Below, one piece after another: positions 14,144 through 19,047 of a stretch of 64,000 bases of DNA (position 1 is its first letter; the number at the start of each line of letters is the position of its first letter). The stretch is from contig OZ244802.1 in NCBI GenBank assembly GCA_965220135.1, forward strand, positions 2,464,164-2,528,163, written 5' to 3'. The notes beneath the pieces were generated by a model. That model worked only from the letters and a program-made list of their open reading frames with translations. It was not told the origin of the DNA and did not search any database. The DNA comes from Chloroflexota bacterium (GTDB taxonomy: Bacteria > Chloroflexota > UBA11872). The translations under genes were made by a program, and so were the position numbers.

Positions 14144-15089
14144 TCAGGGCCTCCATGCGTTCGATCGCCTGGGTGCCGAACAAACGCACGTTGTCGCGGA
14201 TGCCGGGGTCGCGAAGCGCCTCGCGGTCGAACCATCGCATTTCGCTGTGCTCGGACTCCGCCAGCCGCTGCCTGCCGCCGACCGCGCGGACGAAGTAGAC
14301 CAGGTCAACGAGCGTGTGGCCATCGCCGATTTCGTGCAGTAGGAGAGTCTCCGGCGCGGGCAGCACATGGACCCCCTGTTGGTCGATGGCGGGTCGCTCC
14401 GCCACGATCTCGATTTCGAATCCGGTTTCCTCGCGCGCCTCACGTCCCAGGGCCTGCACCGGGTCTTCATTCAGCCCGATGTGCCCGCCGAAGGGGAGCC
14501 ACATGCGGAATCTCCGGTGGTTGAACAGCAGAACCTTGCCATCACGCACCAGGTAGCCCGAGCTCGTGAATCGCTTGTGGACGGCCGCCGCCACCTGGCT
14601 GTTGCGTTCGCGCGCGGATTGTACGGATGACCGCGGTCGAGCGTGCTCCAGGCGGTCCAGCGCCCGGGTACCCAGCAGGCGCACGTCGTCGGTAATGGCC
14701 GGGTCCTTGAGCGCCTGGCGGTCAAACCAACGCATCTCGCTGTGCTCGGACTCCGCCAGCCGCTGCGCGCCGCCGACCGGACGGACGAAGTAGATCAGGT
14801 CGATGTGGACGTGTCCCGGCTCGATGTCCTCCAGCAGGATGGTCTCCGGCGCCGGCAGCACGTGAAGCCACGGCTGGTGGATCTCCGGTCGCTCCGCCAC
14901 GATTTCGATGTCGAACCCGGTCTCCTCGCGCGCCTCACGGTGCAGGGCCTCGACAGGATCCTCGTTGGGCTCGATGTGCCCGCCAAAAGGCAGCCACATG
15001 CGCAGCTTGCGGTGGTTGACCAGCAGGACCTTGCCGTCACGGACGAGGAACCCCGTGCTCGTGAAGTGTCTGTCGACGGCCGCCACCAC
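14133..15089 (-). CDS. Tandem double NUDIX hydrolase
   Basis: Two Nudix boxes (GGHIEPNEDPVEALHREAREETG; GGHIGLNEDPVQALGREAREETG). Start moved to GTG 15089 because the track start lies inside tmRNA. Confidence 0.88.
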   Translation of the reverse strand: MVAAVDRHFTSTGFLVRDGKVLLVNHRKLRMWLPFGGHIEPNEDPVEALHREAREETGFDIEIVAERPEIHQPWLHVLPAPETILLEDIEPGHVHIDLIYFVRPVGGAQRLAESEHSEMRWFDRQALKDPAITDDVRLLGTRALDRLEHARPRSSVQSARERNSQVAAAVHKRFTSSGYLVRDGKVLLFNHRRFRMWLPFGGHIGLNEDPVQALGREAREETGFEIEIVAERPAIDQQGVHVLPAPETLLLHEIGDGHTLVDLVYFVRAVGGRQRLAESEHSEMRWFDREALRDPGIRDNVRLFGTQAIERMEALNGT

Positions 15090-15145
15090 CTCAGTGCCGC
15101 GTGCGCGCGCGGATTGTACGGGCGGCGGCAGTCCCGTCGCCGCAT

Positions 15146-15501
15146 TGGTGGAGATGGGGGCGAGTTGAACGCCCCGTCCAGAACCTGTCACCCCGATGCA
15201 TCTACAGGTTTAGCCGGACTCTTAAGGTCTCGCCGCGGCGTCGCTATCCGGCCGCAACGGCGCACGACCAGCCCGCGTGCCTTAGTCGGTCTATGCGGGC
15301 GCCTTGACCGACGCACCCTAGATTCCTTGCGCCCGGAACGCCCCGCTAGGGACGGGCCGGCCGGACGTCGCGGGGCTTAAGCCGCGAGCGGGAGCTGTTG
15401 CTCTTCGCCAGTTACTTGATTGCCAGGGGGATTTACGAGCTCCCTAGCAGGCTCGACCTGCAGCATCGGACTTCGGGGCTCTGTCAAAACCCGTCATCCC
15501 C
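15146..15501 (-). ncRNA. ssrA: tmRNA; tag reading frame 15409-15377, (A)GEEQQLPLAA*
   Basis: 5' GGGGATG pairs with 3' CATCTCC-ACCA with G3:U wobble; T-loop GTTCAACT; tag ending LAA; immediately downstream of smpB. Confidence 0.95.
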
Positions 15502-15513
15502 GCTGTGAAGACC

Positions 15514-16005
15514 TCAGCGCACGTAGCGAGCGATCTGCCGCGCCGCTTCGCGCGCTCGAATCTTCTCCCGATTATCGTACCGTCGCAGGCCGCGCACCAG
15601 TCCAATTTCCAGCTTGGCCCAGCCGCGCGCCAGGAACAGCCGCAACGGAATGGCGGTGCGACCCTTCGCGTTGATGTGTCCGGCCAGCATGTCGATCTCC
15701 GCTCGATGAAGGAGCAAGCGGCGCGGCCGGTCGGGATCGTGGTTGGCATGCGCCGCCGGCTTGTAACGCGCGATATGCACGTCGCGCAGATACGCCTCGC
15801 CCTCCTCCACGGTGATGAACCCCTGCGCCAGGCTGACCGAGCCGTTGCGGATGCTCTTGATCTCGGACCCGCGCAGCTCAATGCCCGCGGTCAGCGTGTC
15901 CAGCACCTCGTAGTCGCGGCGCGCACGGCGATTGACGGCCACCGTGCGCTGGCCCGACGGGACCGGCTTGGGACCTGCCCGGCGTCTACGCCGCTTTCGT
16001 GCCAC
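15514..16005 (-). CDS. smpB: SsrA-binding protein
   Basis: NRRARRDY, AGIELRGSEIKSIR, NHDPDRPRRLLLH, YDNREKI. Confidence 0.96.
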   Translation of the reverse strand: MARKRRRRRAGPKPVPSGQRTVAVNRRARRDYEVLDTLTAGIELRGSEIKSIRNGSVSLAQGFITVEEGEAYLRDVHIARYKPAAHANHDPDRPRRLLLHRAEIDMLAGHINAKGRTAIPLRLFLARGWAKLEIGLVRGLRRYDNREKIRAREAARQIARYVR

Positions 16006-16091
16006 GTTTTCCTGGTGCGCGCTCCGCGCCTGCCAAAAGCCCAACGGCCTGGCACGCGCATTCTGCCGTGGCCGTCGGCGCTAGCGGCCGG

Positions 16092-16349
16092 TCAGACCGT
16101 CGCGAAGCCCCGTGCGGCCGGCGCCTCAACCATGTCGCTCATCAGCTTGGGCAGCGCCATCGTATGGCTGCACGTGCGCCAGCCCTGGAAGAACTCGCAG
16201 TCGCAGGTCCAGGATCCGTCAGCGTAGGTAACGATGTGACTACTGTTATCTCCCTCGAACCGGACACGGAGCGACTCAACGTGCACGCGCTCCGGCTCGG
16301 TGGCGTATTGATGCGCCTTTTGCACCTTGCTGATCAGGCTGGATTGCAC
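16092..16349 (-). CDS. Small SWIM-type zinc finger protein
   Basis: WTCDCEFF...TCSH (CxC...CxH); SD GAGGAGG before GTG. Confidence 0.8.
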   Translation of the reverse strand: MQSSLISKVQKAHQYATEPERVHVESLRVRFEGDNSSHIVTYADGSWTCDCEFFQGWRTCSHTMALPKLMSDMVEAPAARGFATV

Positions 16350-16386
16350 CCTGGAACCTCCTCGGCGGCATCGCCGCGCCGAAACC

Positions 16387-16481
16387 AAAAACGCCCGGCC
16401 GCACGGGCCGGGCGTATCACGCCACGAGAACCGACGCCCGCCCCCTCACAGTGTGGACTCTCGGTTCATATTTCGAGTATA
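16387..16481 (-). promoter_or_regulatory. Promoter (-10 TATACT), leaderless uORF MNRESTL* (16469-16446) and attenuator terminator (16415-16387)
   Basis: 10-bp stem ACGCCCGGCC/GGCCGGGCGT plus U tract; alternative pairings described in findings. Confidence 0.7.
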
Positions 16482-16509
16482 GCCCCGCCCGACCGGCGGG
16501 GCCGTCCGG

Positions 16510-17247
16510 CTACGAACCGTAGTGCAACCGGAATGCCAGCCGCTCGGGCAGTCCCGCCGCGAACATGGCGGCCTGGGTGGCGGCGATGTCATACGCCACC
16601 CGGTGAAACGTAAAGCGACCGGTCGCCGGCTCGTAGTGTGCGTAGGCCGCGCGCGGATCGCCGTCCCGCGGCTGTCCCACGCTGCCGGGATTGAAGATCA
16701 GGCGGTCGGCCTCAGCGTCGATGGCGTCCTTGTCATTGGGCACGGTCGCGGAAAAGGCGCCGACCCCGCGGGCACCTTCGTGCCAGCGAAACGTAATCGG
16801 CACGTGCGTGTGACCCACCAGGCAGACCTGCGTGCCGAAGTAGCCGAAGTTGATCTCCGCCAGGCGTACGTTCGTCAGGTACTCCCAGAGTGGATCGCGC
16901 GGGCTGCCGTGGGCCACGTGCACCGAGCCGAAGACCGACGAGGTGTCGAGCCCCATCAGGTACTCGCGGGTCTCGTGCTCCAGCGTCGCGTCCGTCCATT
17001 GACAGGCGGCGCGCGCGTCGGCGTTGAAGACTGCCAGGTCCGCCTGGCCGGTAGAGCCCCAGTCGTGATTGCCCGCCAGCGAACGAAACGGCAGCGATCG
17101 CAGCAACTGCACGACCTCGTTGGGATGCGGACCGTAGCCCACCAGGTCCCCCAGCGACCAAATCTCGTCCACCGATCCGGCATCCGCCAGCACGGCCTCC
17201 AGCGCCGGCAGGTTGCCGTGGACGTCCGCAATGATCAGCACGCGCAC
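16510..17247 (-). CDS. Metallophosphoesterase
   Basis: DVHGN, GDLVGYG, GNHD, HGSP, GHTH, NPGSVGQPRD. Confidence 0.92.
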   Translation of the reverse strand: MRVLIIADVHGNLPALEAVLADAGSVDEIWSLGDLVGYGPHPNEVVQLLRSLPFRSLAGNHDWGSTGQADLAVFNADARAACQWTDATLEHETREYLMGLDTSSVFGSVHVAHGSPRDPLWEYLTNVRLAEINFGYFGTQVCLVGHTHVPITFRWHEGARGVGAFSATVPNDKDAIDAEADRLIFNPGSVGQPRDGDPRAAYAHYEPATGRFTFHRVAYDIAATQAAMFAAGLPERLAFRLHYGS

Positions 17248-17307
17248 TGGCGAGCCTCCGCTGGCTGTGAACCGGCAGGCGCGCCGGCATGCCTCATTAT
17301 GCGGCCG

Positions 17308-18621
17308 TCACCTGCCGGGGGACTCGGACGTCGGTTGCAGTCCGCGATCCCGCAAACGGGCCACGAACTGATCGCCGCGGTCGAATTCGTTGCTGAAGAG
17401 CCCAAACGAGGCGCACGCCGGCGACAGCAGCACCGCGTCGCCCGGTCGGGCCAGTTTGAGCGCCCGGTCCACGGCCTCCGCCATGTCGTTCGCGTCCGAA
17501 ATCCGGCAGCCGGTCAGCTGCGGGCGCAACCGGTCGGTCCCGCGACCCGGCAGCAGCACCACCCCGCGTAGGCCGTCGGCCGCGCGCAGCCGCTCGGCCA
17601 GGGGCGCAAACTCCAGGCGCTTGTCCGATCCTCCCGCGATGAGCACCCATGGCCCGGGGATGGCGGCCAGCGCGGTCAGCGCGGCCTCCGGCGTCGTCGC
17701 CGTGGTGTCGTTGTACGCGCGCACGCCGTCGATGATTCCCACCAGTTCCTGCCGCGCCGCAACGCCGCCAAAGCCGCGCACGGCGCGTTCGATCGCGCTC
17801 TCGTCCACCCCCGCCTGCCGGGCGGCCGCCGCCGCCAGCGCCAGGTTGCCGCGGTTATGCCGACCCCCAAGGGGCGCGTTGGCCCATCCCGGCGGCTCCT
17901 GCTCAGCGTGCGGGCGTACCACGCGTCCACCGGCCCGCGCCGCGAACCAGTCCGGCCAGCCGCGTCCCTGCGGGATCACGGCCCAGTCGTCGGCGCGCTG
18001 GTTGGCCACCAGCGGCAACTTGGCCTGGGCGTAGGCCTGCATGTCGGCGTAACGGTCCAGGTGGTCGGCCATCAGGTTGGTAACGATGGCCCCGCGCGTG
18101 CGCAGCCCGGTGCCCGCCAGACCTTCCAGCTGCGCGCTGGAAAGTTCCAGCACCACCGTTGATCCGGACGGGATCTCGTGCATTTGCGCAAGCGCCGAGA
18201 CGCGCATGTTTCCGGCCAGGACCGACCGTTCCCCGCCGGCGGCCAGCATCGCGTGCAGCGCCGTGGCGGTGGTCGTCTTGCCGCGCGTGCCCGTGACGCC
18301 GATCACGCGCGCCTGCCGGCACCAGCGCAGAAACAGCGTGAATTCCATCTCGATGTGGGCGCCGGCGTCGCGAGCGGCTTGCAGGTACGGCGAGGCATCC
18401 CGCACGGCCGGGTTGCGTACCACGATCTCAGCGCGCCGGAAGTCGTCAAGTTCGTGCCGACCCAGCACATAGCGCACGCCGCGGTTACCCAGGGCGGCCA
18501 CGCTTGAGGACAGCTCGGACTCCGAACGTAAGTCCGTCACCACCAGCTCGGCGCCGTGGTCGCGCATGAAGCGCGCCACACCCAGGCCCCCACGCTGCAC
18601 GCCCAGACCCATGACCACCAC
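17308..18621 (-). CDS. murD: UDP-N-acetylmuramoyl-L-alanine--D-glutamate ligase (start may be CTG 18681)
   Basis: GVTGTRGKTTT, LELSS, DHLDRY, NDTTATT, IAGGSDK, LLSPACASF. Confidence 0.92.
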   Translation of the reverse strand: MVVMGLGVQRGGLGVARFMRDHGAELVVTDLRSESELSSSVAALGNRGVRYVLGRHELDDFRRAEIVVRNPAVRDASPYLQAARDAGAHIEMEFTLFLRWCRQARVIGVTGTRGKTTTATALHAMLAAGGERSVLAGNMRVSALAQMHEIPSGSTVVLELSSAQLEGLAGTGLRTRGAIVTNLMADHLDRYADMQAYAQAKLPLVANQRADDWAVIPQGRGWPDWFAARAGGRVVRPHAEQEPPGWANAPLGGRHNRGNLALAAAAARQAGVDESAIERAVRGFGGVAARQELVGIIDGVRAYNDTTATTPEAALTALAAIPGPWVLIAGGSDKRLEFAPLAERLRAADGLRGVVLLPGRGTDRLRPQLTGCRISDANDMAEAVDRALKLARPGDAVLLSPACASFGLFSNEFDRGDQFVARLRDRGLQPTSESPGR

Positions 18622-18893
18622 GCGTCGTCCGCGCAGCGCGCCAGGATCCTGCCCCCAGGCCGGCTGTGAAGAGTCGTTCAGGTCGATTCCGCCTGTTGAT
18701 CCAGCGTTAATCGCAGCGACAAACGGTTATGACAACTCGCGCCGGGAATATCAAGGATTTTGCCCTCGCGATCGCGAAAGGCCGAACGATCTACGGACGC
18801 TTTGTCCATGTTTTGAAGCAACAAAGAAGGCGGTCCCCCAGGCACTGAAACGAACCGGCGGCCCGCCCGCTGCGGGCGCTATCAGATTCAGTG

Positions 18894-19047
18894 TTGACGA
18901 AAGCCTACCGAGACTTACACTGGCCTCAGTGCAGCAACGGTTCGGACGTTGCTGCATAACGGGTTCAGGGAGGACGGTTTGATCGTGAGGCGCTGCCACC
19001 GTCGTCGCGATTAACTGAGACATACGCTCGCCCCTCGGGGCGAGCGT
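18894..19047 (+). promoter_or_regulatory. Promoter TTGACG-16-TACACT with structured leader and small uORF
   Basis: Hairpin 18930-18956; SD plus TTG uORF 18979-19014; hairpin 19024-19047. Confidence 0.5.

Follow-up and report, generated by a model that had tools for sequence, protein, structure and literature searches.

A short leader precedes the gene for a small SWIM-like zinc-finger protein in a stretch of 64,000 nucleotides from a Chloroflexota bacterium (contig OZ244802.1, positions 2,464,164 to 2,528,163; hereafter the window). The leader has its own -10 box, a short upstream open reading frame (uORF) and an intrinsic terminator. Judged from the sequence, the best overall explanation for positions 16481-16381 of the minus strand, and one that we hold with moderate confidence, is a ribosome-dependent leader-peptide transcription attenuator that gates the SWIM-like gene. 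The more general reading of the leader as a ribosome-dependent attenuator is fairly likely. The proposed class assignment follows from three of the four defining features of such attenuators, namely the promoter, the uORF and the terminator, the fourth being translation dependence. What is notable, across the genomes compared, is the conservation of the unit through the phylum and the precise geometry by which the leader reading frame stops at the terminator stem. The elements concerned, and the gene proposed to be under their control, are as follows.

16476..16481, minus strand: -10 box TATACT of the leader promoter; found in 24/24 loci of the genus, with no -35 match in the genus

16446..16469, minus strand: uORF1, probably leaderless (ATG, peptide MNRESTL, stop TGA)

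16428..16467, minus strand: hairpin P1, equivalent to a 1:2 pairing, from minimum free energy (MFE) folds

16417..16449, minus strand: uORF2, a candidate only (GTG start, MRGRASVLVA, stop TGA), in 16/19 genus leaders with a terminator

16434..16443, minus strand: segment 2, GGGCGGGCGT, which might pair as an antiterminator with the 5' arm of the terminator, from duplex energy and in-register pairing

16381..16415, minus strand: intrinsic terminator (stem 16415-16406 with 16400-16391, loop 16405-16401, tail TTTTGGTTTC; -21.9 kcal/mol)

16092..16349, minus strand: SWIM-like zinc-finger gene (85 amino acids, GTG start, CxC...CxH motif)

The leader in the window

The box TATACT (16481-16476) is followed by CGAAAT and then, at a spacing of 6 nucleotides (nt), by the ATG at 16469, from which uORF1 reads ATG AAC CGA GAG TCC ACA CTG TGA down to 16446. 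Segment 1, GAACCGA (16467-16461), can pair with TCGGTTC (16434-16428); with further pairs inside, the match becomes hairpin P1, whose 5' arm lies within codons 1-5 of uORF1 and whose loop contains the uORF1 stop. After a spacer of 12 nt comes the terminator stem, with 10 pairs (9 of them G-C) and a 5-nt loop, and the end of the terminator lies 41 nt from the SWIM-like gene. Segment 2 (16443-16434) is able to pair, with one bulge, with ACGCCCGGCCC (16415-16405). The -10 box, the ATG, the uORF, both segments and the terminator thus lie at the positions given in an earlier, sequence-only reading of this DNA. The MFE fold of 16475-16380 (96 nt) consists of exactly P1 and the terminator, at -43.5 kcal/mol. 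A consensus scan found the terminator independently, as one of six terminator-like sites in 15000-19000, compared with 2.3 +/- 1.4 in shuffled sequence.

The same kind of scan found no promoter-like site in the 41-nt gap between the terminator and the gene, which implies that RNA polymerase would reach the SWIM-like gene by read-through only. On the promoter and terminator signals, the leader therefore shows a SWIM-like gene predicted to be transcribed through a conserved terminator and by no other route. The leader is single copy, other copies not having been found in the genome. At the Rfam gathering threshold the window has three matches, the transfer-messenger RNA (tmRNA) and two tRNAs, none of them on the leader; at a permissive E-value the best leader match reached 16.7 bits (E = 0.16), where the gathering score is 49.5. 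Rfam thus gave no known family for the leader.

Two RNA contigs of relatives touch the leader. The first (311 nt, 27 differences) runs from 16435 to 16125 and bridges the terminator, and the second (303 nt) runs from 16395 to 16093. The contigs come from two libraries with small shares of such sequence, and contigs cannot show starts, ends or absence; overall, RNA contigs span the tmRNA and the SWIM-like gene, and uORF1, smpB and most of the upstream phosphoesterase gene are uncovered. The two contigs are compatible with read-through transcripts.

Leader reading frames across the phylum

The survey of other Chloroflexota took in 149 unique upstream regions, 83 from 110 loci and 66 from 90 loci; 60 regions of the second set were hand-picked to spread over families, which makes this a non-random sample. 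A relative of the protein is encoded in 519 of the 540 candidate stretches from the species-level genome collection, 80 of the 519 being among the matches listed. Numbers such as L011 or L013 denote individual loci carrying the SWIM-like gene, and G000 denotes a genome. Terminators were called thermodynamically, the requirements being a hairpin energy of -12 kcal/mol or lower and a T-rich tail whose end lies 12-135 nt upstream of the SWIM-like gene. By this definition 117 of the 149 loci have one. The median gap between terminator and gene is 37 nt, and in 88/117 loci it is no more than 45 nt, which is too short for a separate promoter.

Reading frames were accepted as uORFs if their ATG had either TANNNT 4-11 nt upstream (the leaderless type) or a Shine-Dalgarno core. 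By this crude filter a uORF with start signals precedes the terminator in 89/117 loci, compared with about 23 in shuffled sequences; the test supersedes a more lenient first one, which gave 85/117 against 68.7 +/- 5.4. The loci fall into four classes. Class 1 (42/117) has an open reading frame (ORF) of 4-40 codons that stops anywhere between 13 nt ahead of the stem and the loop's end; 200 shuffles gave this arrangement 4.7 times on average and 9 times at most. In class 2 the ORF crosses the terminator (19 loci; 11.4 in shuffles), which brings the loci with a leader ORF at or crossing the terminator to 61/117. The ORFs of class 3, which includes the window's genus, stop earlier (28 loci; 7.3 in shuffles), and class 4 comprises the loci that yield no uORF. 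Clustering at 70% leader identity leaves 75 clusters, distributed over the four classes as 30, 10, 10 and 25; that level was chosen as 60% identity collapsed all the leaders into one cluster.

The geometry of class 1 was worked out on 41 uORFs, L013 being left out. The stop codon overlaps the stem or lies at most 5 nt away from it in 40 of the 41, and in the commonest arrangement (18 loci) its last two bases are inside the stem. All three stop codons are used (TGA 22, TAA 10 and TAG 9). The ORFs are 7-29 codons long, most often 10, and begin in 27 cases with a start of the leaderless type and in 14 with one of the Shine-Dalgarno type; L149, L150 and L200 have leaders of the form GAAGGAGG-N7-ATG...TAG. 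In the families whose leaders are led by a canonical Shine-Dalgarno sequence, that signal makes it very probable that the leader is translated. Among the leaders of the other families no single residue is enriched. Hairpins inside leaderless uORFs are stabler than in shuffles (mean z = -1.6), and the Shine-Dalgarno-led leaders have no such excess (mean z = +0.2). Sequestration of the AUG in a hairpin was considered as a general rule and rejected, since it occurs in 10/28 leaderless leaders against 6.6 expected, which is not significant.

Some observations concern individual leaders. Inspected by eye, the class 4 loci L026, L027, L145, L154, L197 and L183 have a uORF that ends at the stem and whose start context was missed by the filter. 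A leader start ATGCGAGT / ATGCG(T/G)(T/G)T, encoding Met-Arg-Val/Leu/Ile, is common to leaders of several distant families (L145, L155, L156, L198, L199, L167, L192, L093, L106 and L108); another large group of leaders shares ATGGATGTG...GGCATCCA (MDV..GIH). The two groups may represent two ancient leader types. In L177, from another family, the terminator directly follows an apparent tRNA 3' end (…GGTTCGAGTCCC…CCA), and the SWIM-like gene there may be read through from the tRNA gene.

The comparison between families also bears on whether the functional product is the RNA itself. A terminated transcript of ~85 nt might act in trans as a small RNA, the ORFs being incidental and the gene reached through leaky read-through. 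Two hairpins with their own -10 box and a terminator are typical of many small RNAs, the window's leader peptide is not conserved while its RNA pairs are compensated (see below), and attenuator-derived RNAs that act in trans are on record in the available part of PMC6614838. What is kept between families, however, is the start codon, the open frame and the position of the stop, and not the sequence. Further counts against a small RNA are the excess of uORFs with start signals (89/117 against about 23), the 14 Shine-Dalgarno starts, the use of three stop codons at the same place, and a leader that is single copy and belongs to no Rfam family. We therefore regard the small-RNA reading as improbable, and it is in any case compatible with attenuation and does not exclude it.

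Conservation within the genus

The SWIM-like gene is present in 40 of 41 related genomes. Among the 24 loci of the genus the ATG lies 6 nt behind the TATACT box in 23, and TATACT-N6-ATG is followed by seven codons and TGA in 20, of which 19 retain the terminator; the uORF recognised from a single sequence is therefore a conserved one. Its peptide varies. The 20 loci encode MNRGSAL (10 loci), MNRGSTL (3), MNRESTL (2), MNRWWAL (2), and MNRESAL, MNRWSAL and MNRWWAQ (1 each), and, in line with the earlier remark that the uORF lacks an amino-acid run, no repeated residue and no regulatory codon run was found in MNRESTL or the six genus variants. Other loci depart from the pattern. L021 is without the ATG and without the terminator, L022 has an 8-codon leader ORF, and in L023 and L024 the leaderless ORF crosses the terminator, with TGG in place of TGA. 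In L013 a natural deletion between two GGCGT direct repeats (equivalent to 16418-16392) removes the whole terminator stem and spares uORF1 and P1; this locus is either a variant with constitutive read-through or the result of an error in assembly.

The position of the leader relative to its upstream neighbour speaks to the simplest alternative, namely that the hairpin is an ordinary terminator of the phosphoesterase gene and that the other hairpins and the ORF arose by chance. That gene is co-oriented, ends 95 nt upstream of the terminator and precedes the leader in the whole order. Between this gene and the terminator, however, lies the conserved -10 box, and relatives carry full promoters there (TTGACC/TTGACT-17/18-TATACT). 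In L019 the phosphoesterase gene is 283 nt further off, and the hairpin, the -10 box and the leader have remained together despite this insertion; in most of the phylum the unit persists with other upstream genes or orientations. This explanation would also leave the SWIM-like gene without room for a promoter of its own. We give it very little credence.

Base pairing was assessed on a 19-sequence alignment with hand-written structures, which replaced RNAalifold on a MAFFT alignment that contained three divergent members, split the terminator and gave a poor consensus. The 12 pairs of P1 are formed in 94% of cells, and two of them are compensatory, G-C being replaced by A-U in two sequences and C-G by G-C in three. 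None of 500 column shuffles reached the covariation score, although this control ignores relatedness. The compensated changes in P1 alter the peptide (for example Ser to Trp), which argues that what is selected is the RNA structure and the existence of an ORF, and not the peptide sequence. As far as comparative sequence can tell, P1 is under selection as a structure. The terminator stem is paired at its 10 positions in 100% of cells. Both the 1:2 pairing and the 10-base-pair (bp) terminator with its T tract, as first proposed, thus hold up in the genus.

The P1 loop, CTGTGAGGGGG, is nearly invariant within the genus. Taken with the selection on P1, this could point to a leader that binds a protein or a ligand, the zinc-finger protein regulating its own synthesis through P1 or the leader being a small riboswitch. 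SWIM domains are nucleic-acid or protein binding modules, which would suit the former. Against such a leader, there is no sequence or loop motif common to the families in spite of a highly conserved protein, Rfam gives no match, and the uORF1 stop, together with the start that overlaps it, accounts equally well for the invariance of the loop. We consider a binding leader even less probable than a small RNA.

The proposed 2:3 antiterminator

The sequence-only reading had described a trp-like attenuator with a 1:2/2:3/3:4 layout. In such a model a ribosome stalled early in the uORF would cover segment 1, segment 2 would then pair with the terminator 5' arm, and polymerase would read through; with a ribosome that has come to the stop codon, or with no ribosome, transcription would terminate, so that the gene would be induced by early stalling. 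The 1:2 and terminator parts of this layout are conserved, as described above, and the 2:3 helix is the part for which covariation is missing.

In the window the 2:3 duplex reaches -21.4 kcal/mol (z = -2.2), a strong pairing that is equalled in 2% of shuffles. Within the 19 genus sequences 84% of its cells are paired in register, compared with 32-58% for slid controls, a comparison that is inflated because the structure was derived from this very sequence. When nt 1-16 are blocked, the nascent RNA folds segment 2 onto the terminator 5' arm in most genus members. The distance of 30 nt between the uORF1 stop and the stem also favours the model to some extent, in that it makes direct occlusion of the terminator by a ribosome on uORF1 unlikely (PMC4824070, cited here and below from part of its text).

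The remaining comparisons are unfavourable. The 19-sequence alignment contains no compensatory change in the 2:3 helix, one of its ten pairs (35-60) exists in the window genome alone (1/19), and a G-to-C change in segment 2 of three species (L018-L020) is compensated in P1 and breaks 2:3. In the other 18 genus sequences the duplex has energies of -9.4 to -16.8 kcal/mol (z +0.1 to +1.5), no better than composition-matched shuffles. A G-rich segment will always pair to some degree with a C-rich arm, and the antiterminator is, on these alignments, possible but unsupported. Furthermore, leader ORFs extend to the terminator or past it in the nearest relatives (L022-L025, L053-L060) and in most of the phylum, which implies the opposite logic for the orthologous gene: the stop-at-stem geometry predicts read-through when the leader is translated (PMC4824070), and not induction by an early stall. 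The trp-like mechanism is thus unproven from the sequences at hand and in our estimate unlikely. Overall, what the sequence-only reading observed is confirmed, and its interpretation is partly supported.

A proposed mechanism

Work in E. coli suggests how a leader ORF that stops at a terminator could control it. There, a terminator that follows a stop codon by 5 bp has an efficiency of <10%, compared with ~90% at 28 bp; the ribosome standing on that stop prevents the hairpin from folding, and has no effect beyond ~27 nt. The effect needs transcription-translation coupling and is likened to the pyrBI attenuator (PMC4824070).

In the attenuator that we favour, transcription would probably start at or beside the A of the ATG at 16469 and give a leaderless RNA. 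The first 42 nt of the leader RNA would fold into P1, with the terminator following 12 nt later. A ribosome loading on the nascent leader would open P1, and a ribosome standing beside the terminator 5' arm while polymerase makes the 3' arm would block the terminator hairpin. Prompt, coupled translation would therefore switch the SWIM-like gene on, and late or lagging ribosomes would leave it off. In most other Chloroflexota a single uORF would suffice, since its own stop codon already lies over the base of the stem. Whether this logic, in which translation gives read-through, applies to the phylum as a whole we consider evenly balanced on the leaders surveyed.

A leaderless start is plausible in this organism from the distribution of promoter-like boxes in its genome: TANNNT beginning 12 nt before the first ATG of long ORFs, which is the spacing of the window's leader, occurs at 8.8 per 1000 (~26/2938), compared with ~2 per 1000 at neighbouring offsets. 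This small peak across the whole genome (G000), with exactly 6 nt between box and ATG, is accompanied by a broader one at 29-33 nt upstream, and the pattern suggests a minority class of leaderless mRNAs. For the ribosome to arrive in time on so short a leader, polymerase would need to pause. The trp 1:2 hairpin is a pause signal, and by analogy the candidates here would be P1 and the hairpins inside leaderless uORFs.

Since uORF1 of the window stops 30 nt too early, the stop-at-terminator geometry would need a second ORF in this genus. A GTG at 16449 overlaps the uORF1 stop (GTGA) and opens a 10-codon frame, MRGRASVLVA, whose stop TGA (16419-16417) ends 1 nt before the terminator stem and so restores the geometry seen elsewhere in the phylum. 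This uORF2 is kept in 16/19 genus leaders, with ATG as its start in L011 and TAA as its stop in L014. Ribosomes that finish uORF1 could re-initiate at GTG 16449 and then translate uORF2 as far as the stem. Such a relay is at present a tentative and rather doubtful proposal from the reading frames. A different link between uORF1 and the gene, read-through or recoding of the UGA, was considered because the frame past TGA 16446 is open into the SWIM-like ORF. It was ruled out by the 1-nt insertions in 3/19 leaders and by the gene's own stops in the genus, which are TGA, TAA and TAG.

A number of points weigh against the attenuator as set out here. The stability of the leader fold is modest (z = -1.94, equalled by 9/200 shuffles, in a genome of 66% G+C), and it is through conservation across genomes, not folding energy, that the leader features exceed chance. 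The consensus promoter scan made no call at the leader TATACT, there being no -35 match for it to find. The RNA evidence consists of two low-depth contigs of relatives, in which DNA carry-over is possible. In the survey, 32/149 loci are without a terminator, class 4 accounts for 28/117 loci with no uORF by the filter (93.6 in shuffles), and the counts overstate independence since the loci are related and partly hand-chosen. In the window's genus, the distance of 30 nt from the end of uORF1 to the stem is beyond the E. coli range of ~27 nt (PMC4824070). As to uORF2, a 1-nt insertion in 3/19 leaders sends it through the terminator, an NTG overlapping TGA arises by chance for three of the four possible preceding bases, open frames are common at this G+C content, and a phylum-wide test for stop-start relays gave a weak result (11 clusters, where shifted control windows had 4 and 7). 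Finally, terminators are efficient when they lie in a coding region's first 100 bp (PMC4824070), so that a ribosome may not catch the polymerase unless the polymerase pauses.

If the leader is an attenuator, the triggers of read-through would reveal what the cell adjusts the SWIM-like protein to, and the leader would offer a natural reporter for leaderless initiation as well as for transcription-translation coupling, on neither of which we found anything in print for Chloroflexota. It would also be a recurrent cis-regulatory element, new to Rfam, in front of a near-universal gene. A more speculative extension, which we think unlikely, is a phylum-wide coupling sensor: synthesis of the SWIM-like protein would be licensed only when the first ribosome keeps pace with RNA polymerase over a leader of ~10 codons, the stop codon of which makes up the base of the terminator, with the relay serving this purpose in the present genus, and the protein would itself belong to the translation or coupling machinery. 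If true, this would explain why the gene lies beside smpB and the tmRNA gene in some orders.

The SWIM-like protein and its neighbours

Of 401 sampled Chloroflexota genomes, 320 have the SWIM-like gene (318/399 without two unpublished genomes, which enter this tally alone), corresponding to 268/334 high-quality genomes and 159/214 genera. There were families in which it was not found, such as two with 0/18 and 0/12 genomes. In 50 sequences C49, C51, C60 and H62, which make up the CxCxnCxH motif, are invariant, and there are 21 invariant columns. The Pfam SWIM model (PF04434) scores 14.8 bits against a cut-off of 19.6 (E = 0.021). The Atlas clusters are named SWIM and belong to Chloroflexota, with 26-41% of members carrying PF04434, and the AlphaFold model is confident (predicted local distance difference test score, pLDDT, 87.7). 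NCBIfam has no meaningful family for the protein. Searches for solved relatives gave nothing significant, with a best E of 0.49 by sequence in the PDB and of 0.4 with Foldseek, and the best match in the VIA wide structure search had Z 2.7, with ZSWIM8 at Z 2.3. We found no printed description of this leader or protein in Chloroflexota in the literature.

On the minus strand the order is phosphoesterase gene, leader, SWIM-like gene, smpB, tmRNA gene, and the features around the leader are these.

16510..17247, minus strand: metallophosphoesterase gene, calcineurin-like (Pfam Metallophos_2 at 1.4e-17; stop TAG 16512-16510)

16482..16503, minus strand: G+C hairpin GGCCCCGCC / GGCGGGGC without a U tract, from folding; between the phosphoesterase stop and the -10 box

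16357..16377, minus strand: small hairpin (16377-16365) and Shine-Dalgarno sequence GAGGAGG (16363-16357), from the sequence; kept in the genus alignment

15514..16044, minus strand: smpB (Pfam SmpB at 1.1e-49); the longest ORF begins at 16044, the likely start by the genus spacer alignment being GTG 16005

15146..15501, minus strand: tmRNA gene (Rfam RF00023, 134.7 bits), covered by RNA contigs

The neighbourhood had suggested a ribosome-stress module made up of the SWIM-like gene and the smpB-tmRNA genes. This is not borne out by the wider comparison. The smpB gene lies downstream in 53/83 loci, in the window's order and a few other lineages and sometimes with one gene between, and it is absent within 1.7 kb or more downstream in 25 loci that keep the leader. 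The leader thus goes with the SWIM-like gene and not with trans-translation, to which its link is lineage-specific. In 7 of 12 smpB-less loci examined, a membrane metalloprotease with Peptidase_M50 and CBS domains is encoded one or two genes (0.3-2 kb) downstream of the SWIM-like gene, as in L092, L096, L091, L082, L069, L103 and similar loci.

Three further structures were noted near the leader. The arms of the G+C hairpin at 16503-16482 co-vary among genus members when inspected by eye, and the sister genus (L053-L060) has a hairpin like it that directly adjoins TATAAT; candidate roles are a 3'-end stabiliser of the upstream mRNA or a part of the promoter. One base before the GAGGAGG of the SWIM-like gene is a genus-conserved 5-bp hairpin, GCGGC gat GCCGC, that may influence translation of read-through transcripts. 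The spacer between the SWIM-like gene and smpB (16091-16006, minus strand) has a nearly invariant GGCAGAATGC motif with flanking arms that co-vary, and a second small hairpin before the likely smpB start at GTG 16005; this spacer could hold the promoter of smpB or form a structured 5' leader. The two RNA contigs that cover the SWIM-like gene end before it or at its start.

Comparison with known systems

The attenuators of trp, his and leu operons have a three-stem 1:2/2:3/3:4 layout. The leader resembles them in its short ORF, a 1:2 hairpin that overlaps the ORF, a 3:4 terminator and, in the window genome, a possible 2:3 helix. It differs from them in the lack of a regulatory codon run, in a gene that is not biosynthetic and in a 2:3 helix without covariation. 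Because there is no codon run and the antiterminator is unsupported, we do not regard it as an amino-acid attenuator of the trp type (for leader-peptide attenuators of the trp, his and leu type see also the available part of PMC1183508).

Leaders that begin directly with their start codon are familiar from Actinobacteria. As in the leaderless uORFs of that phylum, a 5'-terminal AUG here opens a very short ORF proposed to control a downstream gene. Those uORFs, however, sense a specific amino acid by means of codon runs, whereas here the peptide varies freely. Corynebacterium has leaderless leader peptides. In mycobacteria, polycysteine leaderless short ORFs serve as attenuators, according to the part of bioRxiv 10.1101/834739 available to us.

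A third group consists of attenuators in which a uORF without codon runs precedes an intrinsic terminator and senses the general state of translation, and in both respects the leader proposed here is alike. Such stall-sensing uORF attenuators precede genes for ribosome protection or rRNA methylases, vmlR and lmo0919 among the genes so controlled. They induce on stalling through an antiterminator, which is the part unsupported here, and the gene regulated here has no known link to the ribosome. The B. subtilis yxjB uORF attenuator likewise senses antibiotics and stalling (PMC6851288, from the part available).

Together with the leaderless uORFs of Actinobacteria and the stall-sensing uORFs, the pyrBI attenuator of E. 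coli is among the systems closest in mechanism. In pyrBI the leader ORF reaches the terminator and the ribosome blocks the hairpin (PMC4824070, which cites Roland et al. for pyrBI). Some features set the Chloroflexota leaders apart from pyrBI: neither a U-rich pause region nor a connection with nucleotide levels can be seen, their length is far smaller (10 codons being commonest) and many are leaderless, and in the window uORF1 ends 30 nt too early. The arrangement of the 42 loci whose ORF stops at the stem and of the 19 whose ORF crosses it nevertheless fits the pyrBI pattern, and read-through of the pyrBI kind reports how closely translation trails the polymerase.

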